DNA of 44,532 nucleotides from the sequence record OX457022. One strand, given 5' to 3'. Position 1 is the first letter of the stretch, and the number at the start of each line of letters is the position of its first letter. Below are positions 1 to 44,532 of the stretch, one piece after another. The notes below the pieces were generated by a model. That model worked only from the letters and a program-made list of their open reading frames with translations. It did not search any database and was not told the origin of the DNA. Source of the stretch: Escherichia phage vB_EcoP-CC1. The translations under genes and the position numbers were made by a program.

Positions 1-127
1 CATGTGCTGAAGGAGTGGCCTACATGCGACCAAACTTCGACTTCGGAGCTACAGTATCGGAAGACAATAATCTCATCCTGTGGCCGACTGAAGGTGAGAG
101 AATCGCTCTCATAGATGCTGACATGTT
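1..127. repeat. Window-end overlap: exact copy of 44406-44532 (circular-permutation or assembly overlap)
   Basis: Direct reading shows bases 1-127 (catgtgctgaaggagtggcc...gctgacatgtt) are identical to the last 127 bases. The overlap lies inside coding sequence. Confidence 0.95.
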
Positions 128-2515: not shown

Positions 2516-3001
2516 ATGTCAGAGACTGATATTAGAAAGATTGATATTGGAGAGTACGTCGTACGCCGTGCAGCTTACCGAGATGCCAACTGGAATAAAC
2601 TGTGTGAAAGACTAAACAAGAAACCAGATGAGGTATTCAAAGTATCCAGTGCAGAACCTAATTATAACTCTATCATGTTAGAAGGTGTTGAGAAGCGCGA
2701 ATGGTATGCGCCTTACTTCCATGTTGTTGACTCATTGCAAGGTGAAGAACCTAACACGTTGGACAACAATATGGTTACTAAGCCGAAGCACTATGAGTTC
2801 TTCGAAGGTGTAGAAGCGATTACTATCATTGCCCGCAGCATGACCGAGAAGCAATTCGCTGGCTATTGCATGGGTAATGCTTTGAAGTACCGCCTACGTG
2901 CAGGTAAGAAGTTCAACACTGAAGAAGACCTGAAGAAAGCAGACTACTATAAGGAGTTATTCCAGAAGCATCGTCACGAATGTATTGATGAGGATATTTG
3001 A
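2516..3001 (+). CDS. T7 gp1.7-like protein (DUF3310; nucleotide kinase family)
   Basis: GGAGG lies 8 nt before the ATG at 2516. KPKHYEFFEGVEAITIIARSMTEKQFAGYCMGNALKYRLRAGKK...ADYYKELFQKH parallels the T7 gp1.7 C-terminus (recalled). Confidence 0.7.
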   Translation: MSETDIRKIDIGEYVVRRAAYRDANWNKLCERLNKKPDEVFKVSSAEPNYNSIMLEGVEKREWYAPYFHVVDSLQGEEPNTLDNNMVTKPKHYEFFEGVEAITIIARSMTEKQFAGYCMGNALKYRLRAGKKFNTEEDLKKADYYKELFQKHRHECIDEDI

Positions 3002-3002
3002 T

Positions 3003-3950
3003 ATGAATATCTTTGAGTTCCTAGGTCTTCCAGAAGATCACCGCAACCACCCATTCATGTTGGTGAAACATCGTGGTGAAGTCCCTGAGAAGAAATTAAC
3101 CTTTCCATGTTATGCACAGGTGAAACGAGATGGAATATTCAGTGCTGTTGTGGTGCGTAATGATGGTGCTGTTGCCATCTTTGGTCGTACTGGTAAGAAG
3201 CTCGCAAATGTTGAAGCCTTGGAAAAGACATTTAGTGTATTTCCTGTCGGGTTGTATCTTGGTGAGTTGCAATCTATGGCTGTTGATGTTTATCTTGAAG
3301 CTCTATCAGGAGTGGTAAACCCTAATCGTACAGAGCCACTTGATTTCATAGGCCAGCAGATTAAAGACAACCTGTATATCGACTTCTTCGATATGTTAAC
3401 CATTAAGGCATTCCATGATGGATTCACTGATGTTTCTTATCTCAAACGTTACGATGCTTTACATCGTCGCATCGGCACTCATCTTAGCGGGTACAACGCT
3501 ATTCTTCCTATTACTCCTTGCCATAATGAGAGAGAGGTTGAAGCGTTTGCTCAAGAGCAAATAGATGCAGGCCGAGAGGGTGCTGTCTTTAAACTTGACT
3601 GTGATTATGAAGCAGGCCATAAAGGATATCGTCAGACTAAAGAAGTCCGTAAGGTAACTTATGACCTTACTTGTATTGGCTTTGAAGAAGGCAAAGGTAA
3701 GTACAAGGGTAAGGTAGCTAACCTCATTTTCAAATGGAAAGGAGGCAAGACAATCAAAGCTATGCTAGGTAAGGGGTGGACTCATGCAGATGCAGAACAG
3801 ATGTTCCATGATATTAAACATGGCGGACGATTGAATGTCATTGGTAAAATCTTTGAAGTCAAAGGTCTTCAGGATTCAAGCAAGGGCAACATTCGTCAGC
3901 CCAAAGCGGGAGAATTAAGACATGACAAAGATGAACCAGATTTCTTTTGA
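3003..3950 (+). CDS. ATP-dependent DNA ligase
   Basis: The adenylation motif VKRDGIF (KxDG) is present. GAGGA precedes the ATG at 3003. Size and position fit a T7-group ligase. Confidence 0.85.
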   Translation: MNIFEFLGLPEDHRNHPFMLVKHRGEVPEKKLTFPCYAQVKRDGIFSAVVVRNDGAVAIFGRTGKKLANVEALEKTFSVFPVGLYLGELQSMAVDVYLEALSGVVNPNRTEPLDFIGQQIKDNLYIDFFDMLTIKAFHDGFTDVSYLKRYDALHRRIGTHLSGYNAILPITPCHNEREVEAFAQEQIDAGREGAVFKLDCDYEAGHKGYRQTKEVRKVTYDLTCIGFEEGKGKYKGKVANLIFKWKGGKTIKAMLGKGWTHADAEQMFHDIKHGGRLNVIGKIFEVKGLQDSSKGNIRQPKAGELRHDKDEPDFF

Positions 3951-4137
3951 TAGTATGAAGGCGACTCGTGCTGTTGAGGTAGCAGAAGCTATCTTTGAAA
4001 CTTTATCTTGCGGCATGGAAGTGCCATATACTTTACTGGCTGATGCAGAAGAACTTGGTCTTTCTGTAGAAGCTATCCAAGAGAAAGTTGAGGAACTCTA
4101 TGGTACAGACGAAGAAGAAACCGACGATTTCATTTGA
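3922..4137 (+). CDS. Hypothetical acidic protein (C-terminus EEETDDFI)
   Basis: The ORF has GGGAGA 8 nt upstream and overlaps the ligase end. The start is uncertain; 3955 is an alternative. Confidence 0.4.
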   Translation: MTKMNQISFDSMKATRAVEVAEAIFETLSCGMEVPYTLLADAEELGLSVEAIQEKVEELYGTDEEETDDFI

Positions 4138-4141
4138 GGGG

Positions 4142-4270
4142 ATGGAGATGCTTGAGATGATTCTCAAGCCTTCTTCTCCGAAAGTAACTAAGACTCATGA
4201 AGAGTTAATCGTAGATGAAGTGAAGCGTTACATTATGGATTGTGTCAAGGCACAACTGGTAGTCCAATGA
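4142..4270 (+). CDS. Hypothetical 42-aa protein
   Basis: GAGGGG precedes the ATG at 4142. The stop overlaps the next start (ATGA at 4267-4270). Confidence 0.4.
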   Translation: MEMLEMILKPSSPKVTKTHEELIVDEVKRYIMDCVKAQLVVQ

Positions 4271-7413: not shown

Positions 7414-7436
7414 ATTTACTGGACACTATAGAAGGG
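7414..7436 (+). promoter_or_regulatory. Phage RNAP promoter (ATTTACTGGACACTATAGAAGGG), capsid promoter
   Basis: It is a consensus match, with +1 G at 7431. Confidence 0.9.
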
Positions 7437-8693: not shown

Positions 8694-8730
8694 GCCCTAT
8701 CTACCTTGCGTAGGTAGGGTTCTTTTGTTT
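8694..8730 (+). terminator. Hairpin plus T-run after the capsid gene (T-phi analogue)
   Basis: CCCTA/TAGGG and CTAC/GTAG pair, followed by TTCTTTTGTTT. Confidence 0.65.
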
Positions 8731-8740
8731 AGGAGGGTTC

Positions 8741-9481
8741 ATGCCTTTAATTCAAAATACAAGTGATGTTGGACGTATCATGGCTGAGGCTTCCTTCAAT
8801 ATCATTGATAGCAAACTGGAAGCAGTTAACCTGTGTATGCGAGCTATCGGTCGTGAGGGTGTGGATTCCCTTGACTCTGGCGACTTAGATGCTGAAGATG
8901 CTAATAAGATTATTGATATTGTCTCACAACGTTTCCAGTACAATAAAGGTGGTGGTTGGTGGTTTAACAGGGAACCTAATTGGCTGCTTAAACCTGATAC
9001 CAACGGCGAAGTGAATATGCCAAACAATTGCCTTGCGGTACTCCAGTGTTACGCCCTAGGTGAACGTAAAGTACCTATGACTATACGAGCAGGCAAGTTG
9101 TATTCTGTTTGGAATCACACTTTCGACATGTCAAAGTATGTGAATCAGGATGGGCGTATTAGGTTGACTCTGGTAACATTACTACCTTTTGAGCATCTAC
9201 CTGCAAGTGTTATGCAAGCTATTGCCTATCAAGCTGCCGTAGAGTTTATTGTGTCTAAGGATGCTGATAAGACTAAGTTACAAGCACACCAGCAGATCGC
9301 AGCACAGCTTATGATTGATGTTCAGTCAGAGCAGTCTTCTCAGAAGAGACTCAATATGCTTGTACATAACCCTACTCAGCGCAACTTCGGAATCATGGCA
9401 GGTGGCTCACAGAATGTACCAGCATTCTCCTATTCCCCTTATGATACTTACCCTGTAAGGCCGTGGGAGGTTGATCGCTGA
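8741..9481 (+). CDS. Tail tubular protein A (gp11-like)
   Basis: Called from synteny after the capsid gene, the SD AGGAGGG and the size. Confidence 0.75.
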   Translation: MPLIQNTSDVGRIMAEASFNIIDSKLEAVNLCMRAIGREGVDSLDSGDLDAEDANKIIDIVSQRFQYNKGGGWWFNREPNWLLKPDTNGEVNMPNNCLAVLQCYALGERKVPMTIRAGKLYSVWNHTFDMSKYVNQDGRIRLTLVTLLPFEHLPASVMQAIAYQAAVEFIVSKDADKTKLQAHQQIAAQLMIDVQSEQSSQKRLNMLVHNPTQRNFGIMAGGSQNVPAFSYSPYDTYPVRPWEVDR

Positions 9482-11886
9482 TGGAAGTGCAAGGCTCATT
9501 AGGTCGTCAGATTCAAGGTATTAGCCAACAACCAGCAGCAGTGCGGTTAGATGGGCAATGTACCGATATGGTTAATATGGTTCCAGATGTAGTCAACGGT
9601 ACACAATCTCGCATGGGGAGTGTGCACATTGCAAAGCTACTGGACTCCGGCAGTGACAATATGGCAACACATCACTATCGAAGAGGCGATGGTGATGAGG
9701 AATACTTCTTTGTTTTAAAGAAAGGTAGTTTGCCGGAAATCTTTGACAAGCAAGGCCGTAGGTGTAATGTGACAACAAGGGATGCTCCTTTAGATTATCT
9801 AAAAGAAGTAGTAAATCCACGAGAAGATGTACAGTTTATGACTATTGCAGATGTCACATTTATGCTGAATAGGAGAAAGGTCGTAAAGACAAGGTCTGCA
9901 CGGTCGCCTAAGATCGGTAACACTGCCTTAGTTTTTAGTGCCTATGGTCAGTATGGGACTACATATCGTATAAAGATTAACAACGTTACAGCGGCAGAGT
10001 ACAGAACTGCAAATGGTGGAGAGGCTAGTGACATTAGTACAATCAGAACCGAAAGGATAGCAAGGGAGTTGTATGAGAAACTGCTCGCTTGGGAAGGTGC
10101 TGCCGATTATAAATTCAGTCGTGATGAGAATGTCATAACCATTAGTACTGTGGACGGTTCTACTGATTTTACTGTATCTACTAATGATGGTGCGAAAGGG
10201 CAAGACTTAGTTGCAATTAAATATAAGGTAACGTCTACTGACCTCCTACCTTCTAGAGCACCCGCTGGTTACAAAGTTCAAGTCTGGCCTACAGGAAGTA
10301 AACCAGAGTCCAGATATTGGCTAGAAGCAGAGAAGAAAGAAGGCAGCTTGGTTACTTGGAAAGAAACCATTGCAGCAGATGTCCTTCTAGGTTTTGATAA
10401 AGCCACAATGCCTTACCTTATAGAGCGCACAGATATTATAGATGGGATAGCGCAGTTCACTATAAGGCAGGGAGATTGGGAAGACCGCAAGGTTGGTGAT
10501 GACCTCACTAACCCCATGCCGTCCTTCATTGATAAAGAGAACCCACAAACTATAGGCGGCATGTTTATGGTACAGAATAGGCTCTGTGTAACAGCAGGAG
10601 AGGCTGTCATAGCTACTAGGACTTCTGCGTTCTTTGACTTCTTTCGCTACTCAGCAGTGGCTAGCGTTGCTACTGACCCGTTTGATGTGTTCTCAGATGC
10701 AAGTGAAGTCTATCAGCTAAAACATGCAGTTACTCTGGATGGTGCTACGGTCTTATTTGCTAACAGGTCGCAGTTTACAATCCCTGGAGATAAAGTACTG
10801 GAGAAGTCAAACATCGTATTACAACCAGCGACCACCTTCGAAGTTGACAACAGGGTTCCTCCTGTGGCAACGGGTGAGTCTGTGATGTTTGCTACTAGTG
10901 AGGGTGCTTACTCTGGTATCCGTGAGTTTTACACAGATTCATATAGCGATACGAAGAAGGCACAGGCTATTACTAGTCATGTGAATAAGTTGATACAAGG
11001 TAACATCACTCACATGGTTGCCAGTACCAATATTAACAGGCTACTCGTGATTACAGACAAAGACCCCAATATCGTCTATTGTTATGATTGGTTGTGGCAA
11101 GGGACAGACCGTGTACAATCCGCATGGCATAAGTGGGTGTGGCCTAAAAATACTCTGATACGATCTATGTTCTACTCTTCGGAGGCTTTGTATCTTCTAG
11201 TAGAAAGAGGCAATACGGGTGTCTACTTAGAGGTGATGGATATGGGGGATGCCCTCACATACGGATTGGTTGATAGGATAAGATTAGATAGGCAGGCAGA
11301 GCTTATCTTTACTTATGACTCTTACAACTCCCAGTGGGTATCAAATCCTTTACCTTGGATACCAACAGACACTACATTGCTAGATTGTGTACTGACCACA
11401 GGGTGGCCTGCTTATATTGGTGGGGCTTTTGGTTTCGAATATGATGCAGGTAGCAACACACTACGGACTACATTTGATTTAGCTGATGAGCAATCTAACG
11501 CTATCGTAGTGGTCGGACAGTTGTATCAACAGGAGTTTGAACCTACGCAAGTGGTTATCAGGGATAATCAAGATAGAGTCTCCTATATAGATGTACCTGT
11601 GGTTGGGTTAGTGCACCTTAATCTGGATAAATACCCTGACTTTGAAGTGCACATTAAGAATTTGAAAAGTGGAAAGGTGCGAAAAGCACTAGCCTCTAAT
11701 CGCAAAGGTGGTGCACTGAATAACATCGTGGGATATGTTAAACCTGAAGAGGGTTCTTTTAAGTTCCCCCTTAGGTCGCTAAGTACCGACACGGTTTATA
11801 GGATAGTTGTCAAATCACCTCACACTTTTCAACTAAGAGATATTGAGTGGGAGGGTTCGTATAACCCAACTAAGAGGAGGGTATAA
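9481..11886 (+). CDS. Tail tubular protein B (gp12-like)
   Basis: It is 801 aa, comparable to T7 gp12, and is coupled by a TGATG overlap. Confidence 0.8.
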   Translation: MEVQGSLGRQIQGISQQPAAVRLDGQCTDMVNMVPDVVNGTQSRMGSVHIAKLLDSGSDNMATHHYRRGDGDEEYFFVLKKGSLPEIFDKQGRRCNVTTRDAPLDYLKEVVNPREDVQFMTIADVTFMLNRRKVVKTRSARSPKIGNTALVFSAYGQYGTTYRIKINNVTAAEYRTANGGEASDISTIRTERIARELYEKLLAWEGAADYKFSRDENVITISTVDGSTDFTVSTNDGAKGQDLVAIKYKVTSTDLLPSRAPAGYKVQVWPTGSKPESRYWLEAEKKEGSLVTWKETIAADVLLGFDKATMPYLIERTDIIDGIAQFTIRQGDWEDRKVGDDLTNPMPSFIDKENPQTIGGMFMVQNRLCVTAGEAVIATRTSAFFDFFRYSAVASVATDPFDVFSDASEVYQLKHAVTLDGATVLFANRSQFTIPGDKVLEKSNIVLQPATTFEVDNRVPPVATGESVMFATSEGAYSGIREFYTDSYSDTKKAQAITSHVNKLIQGNITHMVASTNINRLLVITDKDPNIVYCYDWLWQGTDRVQSAWHKWVWPKNTLIRSMFYSSEALYLLVERGNTGVYLEVMDMGDALTYGLVDRIRLDRQAELIFTYDSYNSQWVSNPLPWIPTDTTLLDCVLTTGWPAYIGGAFGFEYDAGSNTLRTTFDLADEQSNAIVVVGQLYQQEFEPTQVVIRDNQDRVSYIDVPVVGLVHLNLDKYPDFEVHIKNLKSGKVRKALASNRKGGALNNIVGYVKPEEGSFKFPLRSLSTDTVYRIVVKSPHTFQLRDIEWEGSYNPTKRRV

Positions 11887-30820: not shown

Positions 30821-30913
30821 GATGGTAGCTTCTTAGTCTGGATAGGTTAAACCTAGGGGATTCTCTTGAGTCTCCTATAATGTAACCTAACTAACTAAAT
30901 GAGGATTAATAAC

Positions 30914-31273
30914 ATGACTATGTCTAATATGACTTACTCTCAGGTTTACAACACCGCTCATGCTGCATTAGTTGAACGTATCTGGAATGATGCTATTGAT
31001 TGTATCGATAACGCACATGATGCAATCCATGAGGTAGCGGACAGTGCTGTACCAATCTATTATGCTGACATCTTCTCAGTGATGGCGAGTGAAGGTATTG
31101 ATCACTTCTTCGAAGACTCCGGCCTGATGCCAGATACTAAGGATGTAACGGTCGTACTACAAGCCCGTATTTATGAACAACTCACCATTGATTTATGGGA
31201 ACGTGTTCAAGATATGATTGTTGCGTACACCAATTACGCTGAGGATTCAGAAGAAGAAGAAGAGGAAGAATAA
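30914..31273 (+). CDS. ocr: Ocr (T7 gp0.3) homologue: DNA mimic, type I R-M/BREX inhibitor
   Basis: MTMSNMTY...[61 protein letters not shown] is near-identical to recalled T7 Ocr, and it has an acidic tail. Confidence 0.9.
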
Positions 31274-35392: not shown

Positions 35393-35408
35393 GTCTCACG
35401 CGTGAGAC
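35393..35408. repeat. Palindrome family copy (GTCTCACGCGTGAGAC)
   Basis: It is a perfect dyad located 2 bp upstream of the promoter at 35411. Confidence 0.9.
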
Positions 35409-35410
35409 TT

Positions 35411-35433
35411 ATTTACCGGACACTATAGGATAA
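35411..35433 (+). promoter_or_regulatory. Phage RNAP promoter, ACCGG class (ATTTACCGGACACTATAGGATAA)
   Basis: It matches the core consensus and is the first of a tandem pair after the RNAP gene. Confidence 0.8.
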
Positions 35434-35774: not shown

Positions 35775-37763
35775 ATGGCTATTATTCAGAACGTACCGTG
35801 CCCTGCCTGCCAAAAGAATGGACACGATAAATCCGGCAACCATCTTATGATATTTGAGGATGGCGCTGGTTACTGTAACCGTGGTCATTTCCATGATAAT
35901 GGCAAACCTTATTACCATAAGCCAGAGGGCGGCATCGAGATAACCGAATTGCCCATTACTGGCAATATCAAATACACACCTTCTCAATTCAAAGAAATGG
36001 AGAAGGAAGGGAAGATAAGCGACCCTAAGCTACGCGCCATCGCACTTGGTGGTATGCGTATGAAAGACCGTTGGGAGGTCATGAATGAGCAAGAAAGGGC
36101 AGACCAAGAAGCAGAGTGGAAACTTGATGTTGAATGGTTCCTCACGCTTAAGCGTAAGAACCTTGTTTCCCGACACATTCGCGGCGACATTTGCGCATTG
36201 TATGATGTACGTGTCGGACACGATGAAGAGGGTAGAGTCTCGCGGCATTACTATCCACGCTTCGAGAAAGGTGAGCTAGTAGGAGCTAAGTGTCGCACAT
36301 TACCTAAAGACTTTAAGTTTGGTCATTTAGGTAAACTCTTTGGTATGCAAGATCTTTTCGGGATGAATACTTTGTCTCACGTGTTAGACAAGGGAAGACG
36401 AAAGGATTGCTTGCTTATTGTTGGTGGGGAACTGGATGCGCTAGCAGCGCAGCAGATGCTCCTTGATTCTGCCAAGGGTACTAAGTGGGAAGGTCAACCT
36501 TACCATGTATGGTCTGTTAACAAAGGGGAGTCTTGCCTTGAAGAGATTGTGCAGAACCGTGAACACATCGCCCAATTCAAGAAGATTATTTGGGGCTTCG
36601 ATGGGGATGAGGTAGGGCAGAAGCAGAACCAGCAAGCGGCTCGCCTGTTCCCTGGCAAATCTTATATCCTTGAATACCCCTCTGGTTGCAAAGATGCCAA
36701 CAAGGCATTGATGGCTGGTAAAGCCAAAGAATTTGTGGATGCTTGGTTTAATGCAAAGTCATCTGATGAAGTCTTTGGTAGCCAGATTAAATCTATCGCA
36801 TCTCAAAGGGATAAGCTCAAGGCTGCACGTCCAGAACAAGGGCTGTCATGGCCTTGGCCTAAGCTAAACAAGGTAACACTGGGTATCCGTAAGAACCAGC
36901 TTATCATTATAGGTGCAGGCTCTGGTGTTGGTAAGACAGAGTTCCTCCGTGAAGTGGTAAAGCATCTCATCGAAGAACACGGTGAATCTGTAGGTATCAT
37001 TTCTACAGAAGACCCGATGGTCAAAGTGTCCCGTGCTTTTATCGGTAAGTGGATTGATAAGCGTATTGAACTACCGCCAACCAATGACCCGAAAGAAGAT
37101 GGCTACCGTGAGGTGTTCGACTATACAGAGGAAGAGGCTAATGCTGCCATTGATTATGTAGCTGATACAGGGAAGCTGTTTGTAGCTGACCTAGAGGGTG
37201 ACTATTCGATGGAGAAGGTAGAGCAAACTTGCCTAGAGTTTGAGGCTATGGGTATTTCTAATATCATCATTGATAACTTAACGGGGATTAAATTAGATGA
37301 GCGTGCTTTTGGTGGGAAGGTTGGTGCACTTGATGAATGCGTCAAACGAATTGGTACTATCAAAGACCGACATGCGGTTACGATTTTCCTTGTCTCTCAC
37401 CTTACACGCCCTCCGGCAAACCGTACCCAACACGAAGAAGGTGGCGAAGTTATCCTTTCTGACTTCCGAGGCTCAGGCGCTATCGGATTCTGGGCATCTT
37501 ACGCCTTGGGGATTGAGCGTAATACAAGAGCTGAAACGCTTGATGAACGGACTACCACGTACATCTCATGTGTCAAAGACCGCGACCAAGGTATCTACAC
37601 TGGAACCAAGGTCATGCTTAAGGGTGACATTCAAACCGGACGTTTAATGGAACCACAAGCCCGTACTAAGTCATTTGATACAGGTGAAGCAAGGCAACAA
37701 GAAGTACCTGATTTACCGGACACTATAGAAGAGACAACCTTTGACGATGAACAGGAGTTTTGA
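35775..37763 (+). CDS. Primase-helicase (T7 gp4-like)
   Basis: A zinc ribbon (CPACQKNGH...CNRGH) and a TOPRIM region are present. The Walker A motif is GAGSGVGKT and the acidic C-terminus reads ...FDDEQEF. Confidence 0.92.
   Translation: MAIIQNVPCPACQKNGHDKSGNHLMIFEDGAGYCNRGHFHDNGKPYYHKPEGGIEITELPITGNIKYTPSQFKEMEKEGKISDPKLRAIALGGMRMKDRWEVMNEQERADQEAEWKLDVEWFLTLKRKNLVSRHIRGDICALYDVRVGHDEEGRVSRHYYPRFEKGELVGAKCRTLPKDFKFGHLGKLFGMQDLFGMNTLSHVLDKGRRKDCLLIVGGELDALAAQQMLLDSAKGTKWEGQPYHVWSVNKGESCLEEIVQNREHIAQFKKIIWGFDGDEVGQKQNQQAARLFPGKSYILEYPSGCKDANKALMAGKAKEFVDAWFNAKSSDEVFGSQIKSIASQRDKLKAARPEQGLSWPWPKLNKVTLGIRKNQLIIIGAGSGVGKTEFLREVVKHLIEEHGESVGIISTEDPMVKVSRAFIGKWIDKRIELPPTNDPKEDGYREVFDYTEEEANAAIDYVADTGKLFVADLEGDYSMEKVEQTCLEFEAMGISNIIIDNLTGIKLDERAFGGKVGALDECVKRIGTIKDRHAVTIFLVSHLTRPPANRTQHEEGGEVILSDFRGSGAIGFWASYALGIERNTRAETLDERTTTYISCVKDRDQGIYTGTKVMLKGDIQTGRLMEPQARTKSFDTGEARQQEVPDLPDTIEETTFDDEQEF
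36374..36389. repeat. Palindrome family copy, 1 mismatch, intragenic (GTCTCACGTGTTAGAC)
   Basis: Read directly inside the primase-helicase CDS, where it codes LSHVLD. Confidence 0.6.
37711..37733 (+). promoter_or_regulatory. Phage RNAP promoter, ACCGG class, inside the 3' end of primase-helicase (ATTTACCGGACACTATAGAAGAG)
   Basis: It is a full consensus match. Confidence 0.75.
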
Positions 37764-39201: not shown

Positions 39202-39309
39202 ATGCCACGTGATTATGATTCTGATTGGGACTACTATGACTCAATGAATCCAAAACCCGAACGTTCAGATGATTACTACGAAACAGAGGCAATGTATGAA
39301 AACTATTGA
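39202..39309 (+). CDS. 35-aa Asp/Tyr-rich peptide overlapping the DNA polymerase start
   Basis: GGAGGTG precedes the ATG. The sequence is MPRDYDSDWDYYDSMNPKPERSDDYYETEAMYENY. Confidence 0.35.
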   Translation: MPRDYDSDWDYYDSMNPKPERSDDYYETEAMYENY

Positions 39310-41842
39310 TTGGAAGAAGGAAGCAGAAGGCCGCATCCTCGTCATGGACGCAGAAGCTAAAGGTCTGCTTGATGCTATCCGCTACGGTCATCGTGAAGAT
39401 GTACACATCATTTGCTGCATGGACTTGCTCACCACTGAGGAGTTCCTCTTCTTCGACCCATATGAGATGCGTGACCCTGAAGCAAGAGAACGCCTGAAGG
39501 AGTGGGAAGGCCATCAAGATGGTGACTTGGTTGACGGTGTTAACTTCCTGAAACACTGTGAAGCTATCGTGTCACAGAACTTCCTAGGGTATGACGGCCT
39601 CCTTTTTGAGAAAGCCTTCCCTGATATCTGGAAAGGTTTTAACTATACCGAAAGGCGCGGCAAGGGCAGACTCCGTGCCGACCTGTGTCCTGTGCGAGTC
39701 ATGGACACGCTGGTGATGAGCCGCCTGTTAAACCCCGATAGACGCCTTCCTCCGCAAGCATATGCCAAAGGTATGGGTAACGTCGCCCCTCATTCAATTG
39801 AGGCGCACGGCATCCGTATAGGACGCTATAAGCCGGAGAATGAGGACTGGTCTAAACTAACTGACCACATGGTTCACCGTGTCCGCGAGGACGTGGCAAT
39901 CGGTCGTGACCTTTTCCTGTGGCTGTACAATGGAGAGTGGACGGAGCATAAACGCCGTGGCGTGAATAAACGCACTGGCCTAGGCATTGAGACAGCCTTC
40001 CACATGGAGTCTATTGTGGCGCTGGAGATGAGCCGTCAGGCAGAGCGTGGATTCCGTCTGGATATTGACAAAGCACTAGCGCGATGCGAAGAACTGGACG
40101 CTAAGATTGATGAGACAGTCGCAGCGTTCCGCCCTCACATGCCTATGCGTATCAAGTCTAAACCTTTTAAACCGGAAGAAAAGAATGAAGTATGCCAACG
40201 CGCAAATGAGTATGGAGCTAGCAACAATATACCTACTGTCCTTGACCCCTCACACTTTCTTCATGCCGAGAGACGAGGAGATCGCAAGACAGTATGGAGT
40301 GTCACTACTAAGTCTGGTGATTGGTCGGCTAGCGTCAAGAAAGACTTTCCTCACCTTAGAGGAAACCGTAATGACACGCCAAGCATCAAGTGGATTGGCG
40401 CTTACTCGCCTGTTACTTTCGAAGAGATTCCCTTGGGTAACAGGGATACAGTTAAGCAAGTGCTCTATGATTATGGATGGAAAGGTGTTGAATTTAACGA
40501 TACCGAGCAAGCGCATCTCGATGAGCATGGCGTATTACCCAAACCTTGGAGTGGAAAGATAAATGAGAAATCCCTTACTTTATGGCAAGAAAGAGCCGCA
40601 CGTGAAGGTAAAACAGTACCAGATTGGTGCTTGGGTATCGCTGCATGGTACATACTCGTATCCCGTCGTGGTCAGATCCTCAACCGTGGTGACGTTGAAG
40701 CCTTCGATCAGAAGGGGGCGTGGCCTTCGCAAGCTGGTGTACGAAAGTGTCGCGGCCTTATACCTGTAGCCTTTAACAAGGAATTAGGAATCAATGCGCA
40801 ACAATACTACGAGAGGTATGGGTATTGGCCTACGTCTGACAAGGATGACGGAGAGTGGCGTGTGCCAGCTATTGCTATTAGTATTGGCACTTCTACGTTC
40901 CGTATGCGTCATCGCAATGTGGTTAATATTCCTGCCCGTGGCTTGTATCCTTTACGTGATTTATTCATAGCAGGTAAAGGTAAGCTAATCCTTGGTTGTG
41001 ATGGTGCAGGTCTTGAACTACGTGTACTTTCTCACTTCATGAATGACCCTGAGTACCAAGATATTGTACTGCATGGCGATATACATACTCATAACCAGAT
41101 GAAGGCGGGTCTTCCTAAGCGTGATATGGCGAAGACATTTATATATGCCTTCCTTTACGGCTCTGGTATAGCTAACCTTGCAGCAGTGTGCGGTGTTACT
41201 GAGGAAGAAATGAAGGAAGTTGTGGCAAGATTCGAGATTGAATTACCATCCCTTGCACGTCTTCGTGAGAATGTTATCGCACAAGGCAACAAGTTTGGAT
41301 ACTTACAAGCACCTGACGGGCATTGGGGTCGCATCCGTATGTCTGGTGGAGAACTTAAAGAGCACACTATGCTTAATGTATTACTCCAAATGACTGGCTC
41401 TTTGTGTATGAAATACGCATTGGTCAAAGCGTTTGCAGTGATGCGCAAGGAAGGTGTGGCCTTAGATAGTATGGGACACCCTTGTGGTGTAGCTAACGTG
41501 CACGATGAAATCCAGATGGAAGTACCTGAAGAAGAGGTATTGTATCTTAACTACGACCTACCTTTCACCTTAGAGGGGTTTGAAACAGAGAAGGCTGCTG
41601 TGAAAGCAGTATTCGATGCAGAGGAGAAACGTGTTCATGTGGATTCTGAAGGACGTATGTGGTCTGCTGCAAATCTCATTAGTGTTGATGCTGCTGCTGG
41701 TGTACTTCATTGCCAGCGTCGTTATCACCGCGCAGGGCATATCATTGCCGACGCCATGACTTGGGCTGGTCAGTATCTGAAGATGCGTTGCCCGATGGCA
41801 GGCGAGTATAAGATTGGCGCAAGCTGGAAGGAAACGCACTAG
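39296..41842 (+). CDS. DNA polymerase (family A, T7 gp5-like) with a 3'-5' exonuclease domain
   Basis: The start MKTIDWKK has GAGG upstream. The exonuclease motif is LVMDAEAKGL. Polymerase motifs are LGCDGAGLELRV, RDMAKTFIYAFLYGSG and NVHDEIQMEV. Confidence 0.95.
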   Translation: MKTIDWKKEAEGRILVMDAEAKGLLDAIRYGHREDVHIICCMDLLTTEEFLFFDPYEMRDPEARERLKEWEGHQDGDLVDGVNFLKHCEAIVSQNFLGYDGLLFEKAFPDIWKGFNYTERRGKGRLRADLCPVRVMDTLVMSRLLNPDRRLPPQAYAKGMGNVAPHSIEAHGIRIGRYKPENEDWSKLTDHMVHRVREDVAIGRDLFLWLYNGEWTEHKRRGVNKRTGLGIETAFHMESIVALEMSRQAERGFRLDIDKALARCEELDAKIDETVAAFRPHMPMRIKSKPFKPEEKNEVCQRANEYGASNNIPTVLDPSHFLHAERRGDRKTVWSVTTKSGDWSASVKKDFPHLRGNRNDTPSIKWIGAYSPVTFEEIPLGNRDTVKQVLYDYGWKGVEFNDTEQAHLDEHGVLPKPWSGKINEKSLTLWQERAAREGKTVPDWCLGIAAWYILVSRRGQILNRGDVEAFDQKGAWPSQAGVRKCRGLIPVAFNKELGINAQQYYERYGYWPTSDKDDGEWRVPAIAISIGTSTFRMRHRNVVNIPARGLYPLRDLFIAGKGKLILGCDGAGLELRVLSHFMNDPEYQDIVLHGDIHTHNQMKAGLPKRDMAKTFIYAFLYGSGIANLAAVCGVTEEEMKEVVARFEIELPSLARLRENVIAQGNKFGYLQAPDGHWGRIRMSGGELKEHTMLNVLLQMTGSLCMKYALVKAFAVMRKEGVALDSMGHPCGVANVHDEIQMEVPEEEVLYLNYDLPFTLEGFETEKAAVKAVFDAEEKRVHVDSEGRMWSAANLISVDAAAGVLHCQRRYHRAGHIIADAMTWAGQYLKMRCPMAGEYKIGASWKETH

Positions 41843-42113: not shown

Positions 42114-42491
42114 ATGTCTATGGTAACTACTCTGGTATTCGTAGCTCAATACTTTCGTGGCCTGGCTAATAAGTTTAAACAGAAAGCAATCTTTGCAATT
42201 CAAGAACGTATTAATAAAATTGAAGAAGAACAAGTAGATGTAGAGGAACATCGTAGTTCTCAGATGATTGACCTGCATAATCGTCTGTACAAAGATCGTG
42301 ATGAGATGCGTCACCGTCATGCGAAGGAAGTTGAAGACATGCTTAACCGCCATGCGGAAGAACAAGCTAAGTTGGAAACCACTTTCCATGAGGATAAACG
42401 TAGCATCGCTCTAGCACATCAAGCTGCATCGGATAGCCTGAAGAAAGAGATTGTTATGCTGGAGATTGAGTTAGACAATCTTACCAAATAA
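42114..42491 (+). CDS. Hypothetical 125-aa coiled-coil protein
   Basis: TAGGAG precedes the ATG. A hydrophobic N-terminus is followed by charged heptad-like sequence. Confidence 0.6.
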   Translation: MSMVTTLVFVAQYFRGLANKFKQKAIFAIQERINKIEEEQVDVEEHRSSQMIDLHNRLYKDRDEMRHRHAKEVEDMLNRHAEEQAKLETTFHEDKRSIALAHQAASDSLKKEIVMLEIELDNLTK

Positions 42492-42653: not shown

Positions 42654-43460
42654 ATGGCACGTGGTGATTTTGATTTTGGTGCTCAAGTTACTAAAGCTGA
42701 AGGTAAAGTATTTAAGAACCCAGAAGTAGGTGATCATGAAGCAGTTATCTCTGGCATCATTCATGTTGGTTCCTTCCAAGACATCTTTAAGAAAGGTAAT
42801 ACCACTGAAGTTAAGAAGCCAGCAAACTTTGTTCTGGTTAAGATTATCCTGATGGGTGACGATGACAAGAACGAAGATGATTCTCGCATGGAACAATGGA
42901 TGGCTGTGCCTCTGAAGTCTGGTGATAAGGCAACACTGACTAAGTTCCTGAATGCAGTTGACCCTAAAGAATTGCTTGGTGGCTTCGATGACTTCATTGG
43001 TGAATGCCTGACTGCAACCATGGTTGGCTCTGGTGATAAGAATGACGATGGCTCATTCAAGTATGTTAACTGGAAGGGCTTTGGTGGTATGCCGGAAAAG
43101 CTGAAGAAACTTGTAATTGCTCAGGTTGAAGAAGAAGGTCTGTCTATGACAGGTCACATTACCTTTGACAAGCTGACCAAAGAAATCCTTGATGATATTC
43201 CTGCTAACTTGGTACGCCAATACTTCCTGAATGAAACACCTCGTGGTAAGAACCTGTCTGTTGCTGGTTCTCACGTAGAAGAAATCATTAAAGCTGCTCG
43301 TGAAGAAGACCCAGAATGGAAGAAGGCTAAGAAGAAAGATGATGAGGATGCTACTCCAGCTAATCGTAAGTCTCTGGATACTGGCGAGTCTGTTCCGCAG
43401 GAAGTGCCTGAAGCAGAAGACGCACCTGCACCGGAAATGGATGAAGACGCGGAATACTAA
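42654..43460 (+). CDS. Putative ssDNA-binding protein (gp2.5-like architecture)
   Basis: The SD is strong. The 268-aa protein has a long acidic C-terminal tail ending ...EMDEDAEY. The call rests on architecture and position, not on sequence identity. Confidence 0.45.
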   Translation: MARGDFDFGAQVTKAEGKVFKNPEVGDHEAVISGIIHVGSFQDIFKKGNTTEVKKPANFVLVKIILMGDDDKNEDDSRMEQWMAVPLKSGDKATLTKFLNAVDPKELLGGFDDFIGECLTATMVGSGDKNDDGSFKYVNWKGFGGMPEKLKKLVIAQVEEEGLSMTGHITFDKLTKEILDDIPANLVRQYFLNETPRGKNLSVAGSHVEEIIKAAREEDPEWKKAKKKDDEDATPANRKSLDTGESVPQEVPEAEDAPAPEMDEDAEY

Positions 43461-43469
43461 GGAGGGATG

Positions 43470-43688
43470 ATGAAGGTACAAATCGTAACCCTGCACTGCA
43501 AGAAGGGCATTACAACCCTTGGCGGAAACACTTTTCACTCCTTCTCTGAAGGGGAGACATATTCTGACCTGCACTACATCTGGCGCGATGGGCAGCACGT
43601 GGTGAACTACAGCGACCCCGCTACAGGGAAACGCCACGGCGTATCTCTTCCGGCGCACGACATTGCTCAGGTGAACACAGTTTTATAA
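43470..43688 (+). CDS. Hypothetical 72-aa protein
   Basis: AAGGAGGG lies upstream. The ATG at 43467 or at 43470 could be the start. Confidence 0.5.
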   Translation: MKVQIVTLHCKKGITTLGGNTFHSFSEGETYSDLHYIWRDGQHVVNYSDPATGKRHGVSLPAHDIAQVNTVL

Positions 43689-43689
43689 A

Positions 43690-43705
43690 GTCTCACATGT
43701 GAGAC
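43690..43705. repeat. Palindrome family copy (GTCTCACATGTGAGAC)
   Basis: It is a perfect dyad located 2 nt after the stop codon and 15 bp upstream of the promoter at 43721. Confidence 0.9.
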
Positions 43706-43720
43706 AAATCGGTGTCCAGT

Positions 43721-43743
43721 ATTTACTGGACACTATAGAAGAG
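43721..43743 (+). promoter_or_regulatory. Phage RNAP promoter (ATTTACTGGACACTATAGAAGAG)
   Basis: It is a consensus match. Positions -14 to -5 are mirrored upstream (GTGTCCAGTA at 43712-43721). Confidence 0.85.
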
Positions 43744-43792
43744 AAGAATTTTAATCGGCGATAATGCCATAACTAACAAAGGAGAATTTAAT

Positions 43793-44161
43793 ATGTTCAA
43801 GATTGAAACTATCGTAAACCGTGTTGTTAAAGGTGCTGCTCTGGTGTCCGTTGAATCTTTCATTATCGTCGATGAAGCTGATCAACTGGTAGCTGGCACT
43901 AAGGCTTACGATACCCGTGAAGAAGCTCAGGCTAAGATTGACAGCATGGGTAACTTTGCTGCTGGTCTGGAGTTCGCTCGTGCTTGCTTCCCTGAGCAGG
44001 CTGACAAAGCACAGATTGGTAAGGCTAATATCGTAGCTGAATATCTGGATTGGGTTGCTGCTGGTAAACCAGTGAAAGAAGCTAAGGCTGAAGAAGCTGA
44101 AGCTCCTGCAGTAGAAGAAACCAAAGCAGAAGAAGCTCTGTCTGCTGAAGAAGAATTTTAA
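43793..44161 (+). CDS. Hypothetical 122-aa protein with an acidic Ala/Glu-rich tail ending EEEF
   Basis: It has a strong SD, a dedicated consensus promoter and a downstream terminator. Confidence 0.7.
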   Translation: MFKIETIVNRVVKGAALVSVESFIIVDEADQLVAGTKAYDTREEAQAKIDSMGNFAAGLEFARACFPEQADKAQIGKANIVAEYLDWVAAGKPVKEAKAEEAEAPAVEETKAEEALSAEEEF

Positions 44162-44166
44162 TTGAT

Positions 44167-44200
44167 GCCCTGTCTGCCTTAGTGTAGGCAGGGTCTTTTG
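44167..44200 (+). terminator. Hairpin plus T-run terminator
   Basis: CTGCCT-TAGTGT-AGGCAG, with CCCT/AGGG extension, is followed by TCTTTTGTG. Confidence 0.6.
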
Positions 44201-44225
44201 TGTAATAGTTATTGGAGAATGAATT

Positions 44226-44519
44226 ATGCCGACTATTGAAGAACGTTTCCTGATTCACGTAGACTTCTCACCCATACATCTTGGTTATCTTATCACTATT
44301 CTCTTAGGAGAGGAGGTTTATCTACATAATTACCTTATACCTGAATATGTATGTTTTAGGGATAAGATACACCCGCTTACTTGGGCACAAGAGTGGCTGC
44401 GTGAACATGTGCTGAAGGAGTGGCCTACATGCGACCAAACTTCGACTTCGGAGCTACAGTATCGGAAGACAATAATCTCATCCTGTGGCCGACTGAAGGT
44501 GAGAGAATCGCTCTCATAG
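44226..44519 (+). CDS. Hypothetical 97-aa protein overlapping the exonuclease start
   Basis: GGAG lies 8 nt upstream. The 3' 91 nt overlap the exonuclease CDS, whose start is at 44429 (equivalent to 24). Confidence 0.4.
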   Translation: MPTIEERFLIHVDFSPIHLGYLITILLGEEVYLHNYLIPEYVCFRDKIHPLTWAQEWLREHVLKEWPTCDQTSTSELQYRKTIISSCGRLKVRESLS

Positions 44520-44532
44520 ATGCTGACATGTT

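Follow-up and report, generated by a model that had tools for sequence, protein, structure and literature searches.

We found that the gene at positions 43793-44161 of the genome of Escherichia phage vB_EcoP-CC1 (sequence record OX457022) encodes a small protein, here called gp18, which pairs an N-terminal folded domain with a disordered acidic tail that has a conserved Phe at its end. It is a real gene with expression signals of its own, and tails of the same type were present on two neighbouring replication proteins, the gp16-like protein (gp16) and the primase-helicase. Judged from its sequence and setting, gp18 is probably an unrecognised player in phage DNA replication. We give a probability of roughly 40% to the more specific proposal that gp18 would be a stoichiometric, tail-bearing accessory or competitor acting on a docking site, on a phage replication protein, that is shared with the tails of gp16 and the helicase. 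The window analysed, namely the whole stretch of 44,532 nucleotides to which all positions refer, was an entire, rotated SP6/K1E-like Vectrevirus genome (Autographiviridae, Molineuxvirinae; the K1E / K1-5 / SP6 group). The tail motif class itself is well known, and the databases know the gp18 family as "hypothetical protein" only; what is new is a conserved, highly expressed tail carrier that is not an SSB (a protein binding single-stranded DNA) and that is encoded beside the helicase and the gp16 protein previously called SSB-like. The gp18 gene and its parts were located as follows.

43793-44161, plus strand: gp18 coding sequence, 122 residues, homologue of K1-5 gene 18, K1E gp29 and SP6_20, assigned to phrog_4429.
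43793-44077, plus strand: folded N-terminal domain, residues 1-95, net charge about -4.
44078-44158, plus strand: disordered acidic C-terminal tail, residues 96-122, with 10 acidic and 2 basic residues in the last 26 (97-122).
44138-44158, plus strand: conserved tip LSAEEEF-COOH, with a hydrophobic residue at -7, acidic residues and the terminal Phe; putative docking motif.

The C-terminus of the 122-residue protein reads ...KAEEALSAEEEF. An earlier sequence-only reading of this DNA had described an acidic, Phe-tipped tail on this open reading frame (ORF), and the sequence and the disorder model agreed on this point: the AlphaFold2 model, built from a 24-sequence alignment of diverse homologues, showed a predicted local distance difference test (pLDDT) value of about 90 over residues 1-95 and values below 50 at residues 101-121. 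The same reading had named conservation of the terminal aromatic residue among homologues as a check of its proposal, and this residue was found to be conserved. All 120 close homologues ended in S[AE]EEEF, and a terminal Phe or Tyr was present in 173 of the 180 family sequences (168 Phe, 5 Tyr). Two further members carried Phe at position -2, followed by a single Asp or Glu; the other members with neither residue at the end comprised a probable fragment, a chimera and three real exceptions. The terminal aromatic residue was also kept in relatives that share 33-50% identity and come from Vibrio, Pseudomonas, Aeromonas, Marinomonas and Ralstonia phages. Across the homologues the tails ranged from 12 to 36 residues, with 3-13 acidic and 0-5 basic residues (0-3 basic when the Phe-less outlier P0144 was left aside), and their sequence drifted; the tips varied among phages as EEEF, DETF, EEAF, EGSF and VKAF. 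A drifting acidic linker combined with a fixed terminal aromatic residue is the signature of a short linear motif on a flexible tether.

The proteins of the replication module that matter for this comparison are listed below.

42654-43460, plus strand: gp16-like protein, 268 residues, with a matching tail (tip MDEDAEY at 43437-43457) and the second-highest codon adaptation index (CAI) in the genome.
35775-37763, plus strand: primase-helicase, with the same kind of tail (tip FDDEQEF at 37740-37760).
39269-41842: DNA polymerase, a relative of T7 gp5.

Only three of the 49 ORFs in the window combined an acidic tail, a terminal aromatic residue and no basic residue, and all three belonged to the replication module. 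When the proteins of T7 were treated as a control, two of 52 showed such a tail, namely gp2.5 and gp4; the third tail bearer is therefore peculiar to the SP6-like branch. The tails of the primase-helicase and gp16 were acidic and ended in Phe or Tyr in a set of 19 phages or metagenomic contigs, which covered Molineuxvirinae, Colwellvirinae, Gajwadongvirus and unclassified relatives. The C-terminal sequences that the sequence-only reading had given for the primase-helicase (FDDEQEF), the 268-residue protein (EMDEDAEY) and a 71-residue ORF at 3922-4137 (EEETDDFI) were all quoted correctly.

Comparison of the gp18 and gp16 families with hhalign aligned the last seven residues as the sole segment. 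The globular parts are therefore unrelated, paralogy was ruled out as the cause of the tail resemblance, and the resemblance reflects convergence or mimicry rather than common descent. In the Uliginvirus phages Alpheus and BUCT553, gp16 ended in EEQEFGE and gp18 in EEESFEG or EEETFE, such that both proteins extended past the Phe, and in one Vectrevirus-like contig both proteins ended in Tyr. Additionally, the gp16 and gp18 tails of the same phage were more alike than permuted pairs (p ~0.02, without correction for phylogeny). The parallel extensions in Uliginvirus hint that the two tails may share a docking site.

The signals around the gp18 gene were as follows.

43690-43705, plus strand: palindrome GTCTCACATGTGAGAC, directly 3' of the stop codon of the upstream gene for a 73-residue protein.
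43717-43743, plus strand: SP6-type phage RNA polymerase promoter cagtatttACTGGACACTATAGAAGag, with an exact match to the core 17-mer.
43780-43784, plus strand: Shine-Dalgarno sequence AGGAG, 8 nt before the ATG.
44167-44203, plus strand: intrinsic-type terminator GCCCTGTCTGCC..GGCAGGGT followed by CTTTTGTGT, which ends a single-gene transcription unit.

The promoter core ACTGGACACTATAGAAG was found exactly at 43725-43741 and was one of 10 such sites in the window, compared with 0.13 expected by chance. The capsid promoter at 7418 has an identical upstream extension (cagtattt), and the gp18 transcript presumably starts near 43738, as we take from the SP6 promoter. The terminator hairpin at 44167-44194 was GC-rich, with 11 pairs and a T-run and a computed folding free energy (dG) of -17.8. 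The two strongest terminator hairpins of the genome were near-copies of each other, one lying after the capsid gene (8694-8720, GCCCTATCTACC...GGTAGGGT) and the other being this one after gp18. With CAI weights for E. coli from the Sharp and Li table, gp18 had the highest value of the 35 genes (0.670), followed by gp16 (0.533) and the capsid gene (0.493); in T7, computed likewise, gp2.5 ranked first and the capsid gene third.

These signals were shared by the relatives. The repeated promoter motif of the respective phage stood upstream of the gp18 homologue in 11 of 12 related phages from several subfamilies, and also upstream of the capsid gene in most of them; no promoter motif was detected before the homologue in Marinomonas phage CPP1m. 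A strong hairpin with a T-run followed the gp18 homologue by 5-20 nt in all 12 phages, and in most other phages a GGAG-type site stood before the homologue. By the effective number of codons (Nc), a measure that does not depend on the host, gp18 ranked first or second in 12 of 14 phages. The promoter, terminator and codon signals therefore indicate a gene designed for production in very large amounts, and gp18 is apparently made at capsid-like abundance. The sequence-only reading had called the protein strongly expressed and had named a consensus promoter of its own, a strong Shine-Dalgarno sequence and a terminator; each of these elements was present, and the expression claim was upheld by four independent signals (the consensus promoter, the capsid-type terminator, the top CAI and the Nc rank). 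We infer that the downstream nuclease genes rely on transcription reading through the terminator.

The gp18 gene was found in every SP6-like phage examined. Among 50,697 phage records, gp18 was present in 212 and gp16 in 215, and the genus distribution of the two was identical. The order of the module, DNA polymerase, gp16, gp18, exonuclease and endonuclease VII, was the same in all genomes examined, apart from one or two small genes inserted in some of them. The region 43400-44532 shared 100% identity with Escherichia phage vB_EcoP-CC2 and 88-99% identity with many Vectrevirus genomes. At the protein level, gp18 was 81-100% identical to the Vectrevirus and SP6 proteins, and it matched phrog_4429, a family of unknown function, with E = 6.6e-55 (residues 1-122 on profile positions 1-121 of 121).

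The modelled domain of gp18 consisted of a long beta-hairpin (residues 3-26) followed by three helices (residues 42-51, 55-65 and 71-89), and the conserved residues were K37, A45, G58, A64, K72, K77, A78, N79, A82, W87 and G91. The net charge of the domain ranged from +1 to -5 across the family; therefore, it does not look like a nucleic-acid binder. An exhaustive phmmer search of 1.8 billion representative proteins, for which the domain was used as a tail-less query so that bias from the tail was excluded, returned 24 representatives down to 33% identity, all of which were the same small phage protein. A profile search collected 302 relatives, and the single annotation among them was one "DUF1508" label. 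We found no gp18 match in Pfam or NCBIfam and phrog_4429 alone in PHROGs; the profile of the family had no match among PDB sequences, and structure searches of PDB and BFVD revealed no significant fold relative of the domain. The DUF1508 label, which comes from a third-party database and sits on a close gp18 homologue, would connect the domain to the beta-beta-alpha units of DUF1508 / YegP, and Foldseek gave weak matches of the hairpin plus helix to DUF1508 phage proteins (probability 0.80-0.84) and to the small bacterial proteins 2kvt and 3erm. However, membership in DUF1508 (PF07411) was not confirmed, as none of 20 diverse gp18 members matched at E up to 10 and the structural scores were at noise level. 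DUF1508 is itself without known function, so it is uninformative for gp18. Full-text literature searches aimed at gp18 or at the replication proteins of these phages found no paper on gp18, on an SSB of SP6-like phages or on their thioredoxin dependence; one transcriptome paper considered as a candidate dealt with an unrelated phage.

The 268-residue gp16 had been described in the sequence-only reading as SSB-like, a label that homology did not support in Pfam, PDB or the gp2.5 profile comparison. There was no Pfam or PDB match, even when gp16 was used as a profile, and no relation to the T7 gp2.5 family. All 11 orthologues gave sub-threshold matches to NCBIfam NF046043 (best E = 2.2e-13), which is named "phage replication initiation protein, NGO0469 family"; the name rests on weak BLAST similarities from a 2007 prophage survey. 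No other SSB candidate was recognisable in the window. In the DNA polymerase, we found a conserved, Lys/Arg-rich insertion of about 110-130 residues in the thumb (approximately residues 270-380), at the position of the T7 thioredoxin-binding domain, with motifs resembling R.GdrkT.W..TtksGDyS and fPEmrGN.nDT. It showed no sequence similarity to the T7 thioredoxin-binding domain, and therefore a role for thioredoxin is not to be assumed.

T7 provides the textbook minimal replisome, which is coordinated by two acidic, Phe-tipped tails, on the SSB and the helicase, that share docking sites on the polymerase. In T7, the polymerase-thioredoxin complex receives the gp4 tail. Contacts that tails make with the polymerase and the helicase of T7 have been described (PMC10359462). 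The overall plan of gp18 resembled that of T7 gp2.5 (PF21265, ...DEDGDF) in its disordered Asp/Glu-rich tail of about 26 residues with almost no basic residues and a terminal Phe; D232 and F233 are invariant in the gp2.5 family. Each of the two is the top codon-adapted gene of its own genome and lies in the DNA-metabolism gene class. In contrast to gp2.5, the domain of gp18 is not an OB fold, and its profile did not resemble that of gp2.5 (hhalign probability 0.2%); with about 95 mildly acidic residues, it is unlikely to bind DNA, and T7 contains no counterpart of gp18. The tails of T7 gp4 (...SNDTDF) and of the helicase in the window resembled gp18 in a hydrophobic residue about seven positions before the end, an acidic stretch and a terminal Phe, but the gp4 tail is carried by an enzyme of known function, whereas the carrier domain of gp18 is without recognisable activity. 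The C-terminus of bacterial SSB (...MDFDDDIPF) was similar to that of gp18 in its acidic stretch, C-terminal Phe and position at the end of a flexible linker. In contrast, the gp18 tip lacks Ile-Pro, varies, sometimes has one or two residues beyond the Phe and is attached to a domain that is not an OB fold. The DDDIPF tip of bacterial SSB is described as a hub motif for many partner proteins (PMC5872125).

In our reading, gp18 is a core middle protein of SP6-like phages that is produced in very large quantity. We infer that its tail is a docking motif, and the receptor and the consequence are likewise proposals. Most likely, the terminal Phe would enter a hydrophobic pocket beside a basic surface on a phage replication protein, and the tails of gp16 and the primase-helicase would go to this site as well, or to one of the same family. 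The receptor may be the DNA polymerase, with its conserved basic thumb insertion, or the nucleic-acid-binding groove that gp16 may possess. Since gp18 appears to be made in amounts at least equal to those of gp16, and since its domain is unlike a DNA binder, its action would be stoichiometric. It may act as an additional tail-bearing accessory and carry its domain to the replisome, or it may be a mass-action competitor that tunes the engagement of gp16 and the helicase with their partner. If docking on the replisome were true, this would add a new component or regulator to a model system and would show that a carrier of the docking motif need not bind DNA itself. Apparently the most heavily expressed non-structural product, gp18 is annotated as hypothetical everywhere, and the proposal would be the first pointer to a function for a gene that more than 200 sequenced phages possess; the SP6-like branch includes many therapeutic phages of K1, K5, Klebsiella, Salmonella, Vibrio and Erwinia.

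Several observations weigh against this proposal. The co-occurrence of gp16 and gp18 is the pattern of any clade-specific core gene, the folded domain of gp18 yields no functional clue, and gp16 is not demonstrable as an SSB by homology. The family members P0135, P0138 and P0144 lack the Phe. The co-variation of the two tails is thin, as it consists essentially of one genus-level event and one Tyr/Tyr case, and the permutation p value ignores phylogeny. The gp18 tip of several lineages (EGAF, EGSF, VKAF) was far less acidic than that of gp16 (DEEF), and one distant phage had strongly different tips on the two proteins (DDVPF in gp16 and GEEFE in gp18).

Three other explanations place the function of gp18 elsewhere or restrict its partner. 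In one of them, gp18 would have no link to the replisome and would serve host takeover, as a stoichiometric inhibitor of some abundant host protein such as a nucleoid protein or RNA polymerase; it would be a positional analogue of T7 genes 5.5-5.9, with the polyacidic tail serving as a nucleic-acid mimic and the Phe aiding binding. We regard this as unlikely, though it is the readiest of the alternatives. The gene lies between the polymerase and exonuclease genes, as do those of T7 gp5.5 (which targets H-NS), gp5.7 and gp5.9 (RecBCD), the whole protein is acidic, capsid-level expression fits the titration of an abundant target, and the other non-structural T7 protein of high CAI beside gp2.5 is the DNA mimic Ocr. 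Nevertheless, Pfam, PHROGs, NCBIfam, PDB and BFVD revealed no relation in sequence or fold to gp5.5 (DUF2675), gp5.9, Ocr or known inhibitors, the CAI of T7 gp5.5 is unremarkable (0.325), and the phage already encodes an Ocr-like protein at 30899-31273. Moreover, an inhibitor of this kind would leave unexplained both the likeness of the tip to those of gp16 and the helicase and the joint change in Uliginvirus. A tail that acts on the host could instead be a decoy of host SSB, whereby gp18 would saturate the SSB-tail pockets of exonuclease I, RecQ, PriA and Pol III chi and so either block the restart of host replication or shield phage DNA intermediates. That would be a new type of host-takeover decoy, and we judge it to be unlikely as well, marginally more so. 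The tail is of the same type as that of bacterial SSB, the domain is not DNA-binding-like, as would be expected of a pure tail presenter, the very high expression fits competition with thousands of host SSB tails, and the DDVPF end of gp16 in a distant phage, close to the bacterial motif, indicates that tails of the module can resemble that of the host. On the other hand, host SSB tips are nearly invariant in these bacteria, but the gp18 tip lacks their Ile-Pro and varies among phages. The Phe does not stand at the C-terminus in Uliginvirus or in two other lineages, and such a position should abolish binding to a pocket that reads the terminal carboxylate; gp16 of Uliginvirus likewise extends past the Phe, a parallel that points to a phage receptor co-evolving with the tails. 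Variability is also usual among host-takeover genes, whereas gp18 is a syntenic core gene in phages whose hosts range from Escherichia to Marinomonas and Ralstonia.

A phage receptor of this sort could be gp16 itself, in which case gp18 would be its second subunit or chaperone and the two would form one unit replacing the single gp2.5 of T7. The gp18 tail would then lie in the groove of gp16 in trans, like the tail of gp2.5 within its dimer, and keep excess gp16 soluble and off double-stranded DNA and RNA until single-stranded DNA is available. The two genes are adjacent, with the same distribution and the top two CAI values, and their tails are look-alikes that co-vary in Uliginvirus; in T7, the OB groove is contested between DNA and the gp2.5 tail, which also stabilises dimers (PMC10359462). 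However, DNA binding by gp16 is putative, each of the two genes has a transcription unit of its own, and some phages carry a further gene between the two. The observations are those that also speak for docking on a shared site, and they do not separate the gp16 groove from the polymerase as the receptor; we consider the chaperone arrangement rather unlikely. An even more specific idea concerns the thumb insertion of the polymerase. Thioredoxin-sized, abundant, acidic and clade-restricted, gp18 could be a phage-encoded factor that acts on this insertion in place of host thioredoxin, with the Phe-tipped tail as a tether, and it might give processivity or organise the exchange of the helicase and SSB tails. 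SP6-like phages may not borrow host thioredoxin, and gp18 is absent from T7-like phages. We regard this as a long shot. The proposal of a docking site shared by the gp18, gp16 and helicase tails is the one that we prefer.

Several minor features were observed near the gp18 promoter. A 10-bp inverted repeat at 43712-43733 (GTGTCCAGTA / TACTGGACAC) overlapped the upstream half of the promoter, and none was present at the other nine promoter copies of the window. A palindrome nearly identical to the one at 43690-43705, GTCTCACGCGTGAGAC, was found at 35393-35408, upstream of the promoter core at 35415; the gap between palindrome and promoter core was 6 nt there and 19 nt at the core at 43725. The two palindromes GTCTCACATGTGAGAC and GTCTCACGCGTGAGAC may represent RNA processing sites or hairpins at the 3' end of the upstream transcript. 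A search of the gp18 region for structured RNA gave no Rfam match at E up to 1.

Other proteins of the genome showed ends or signals of a related kind. There is an overlap between the end of the ligase gene and the 71-residue ORF (phrog_5860), which the sequence-only reading had set beside gp18. A hairpin at 4150-4169 comes after this ORF, whose CAI (0.457) is the fourth highest. Homologues conserved the acidic end of its protein but not the aromatic residue (homologue ends EDEDSE, GDEDE and EEETDY), and it was rejected as a further Phe-tailed protein. The ATP-dependent DNA ligase (2985-3950) ends in ...RHDKDEPDFF, and the T7 ligase ends in ...NPQEKM; 14 of 16 ligase orthologues from related phages ended, a few residues past motif VI, in D-F or D-Y. 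A Phe or Tyr C-terminus may make the ligase a fourth such protein of the module, or this end may just be part of its OB domain. Upstream of gp16, a gene for a 125-residue protein (42114-42491) had its own consensus promoter (42031) and a CAI of 0.440; its PHROGs family label, "polysaccharide chain length determinant protein", is unexpected at this place, and homologues were found in the closest relatives only. The Ocr-like anti-restriction protein (124 residues, phrog_2568) ended in a run of seven Glu residues. In a 37-kb metagenomic contig (Logan SRR22936148), the gp16-like protein (9177-9929 of the contig) ended in ...EEETFDPNDDVPF, which is almost the bacterial SSB tip DDDIPF; the helicase of this contig ended in ...AFDEFT and the gp18 homologue in ...GEEFE.

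Finally, the first and last 127 bases of the window (1-127 and 44406-44532) were identical, which resembles the assembly overlap of a circularised contig. The break of the window lies inside the exonuclease gene, whose 345-residue ORF at 15-1052 truly starts at approximately 44420-44429, and the unique genome length is 44405.

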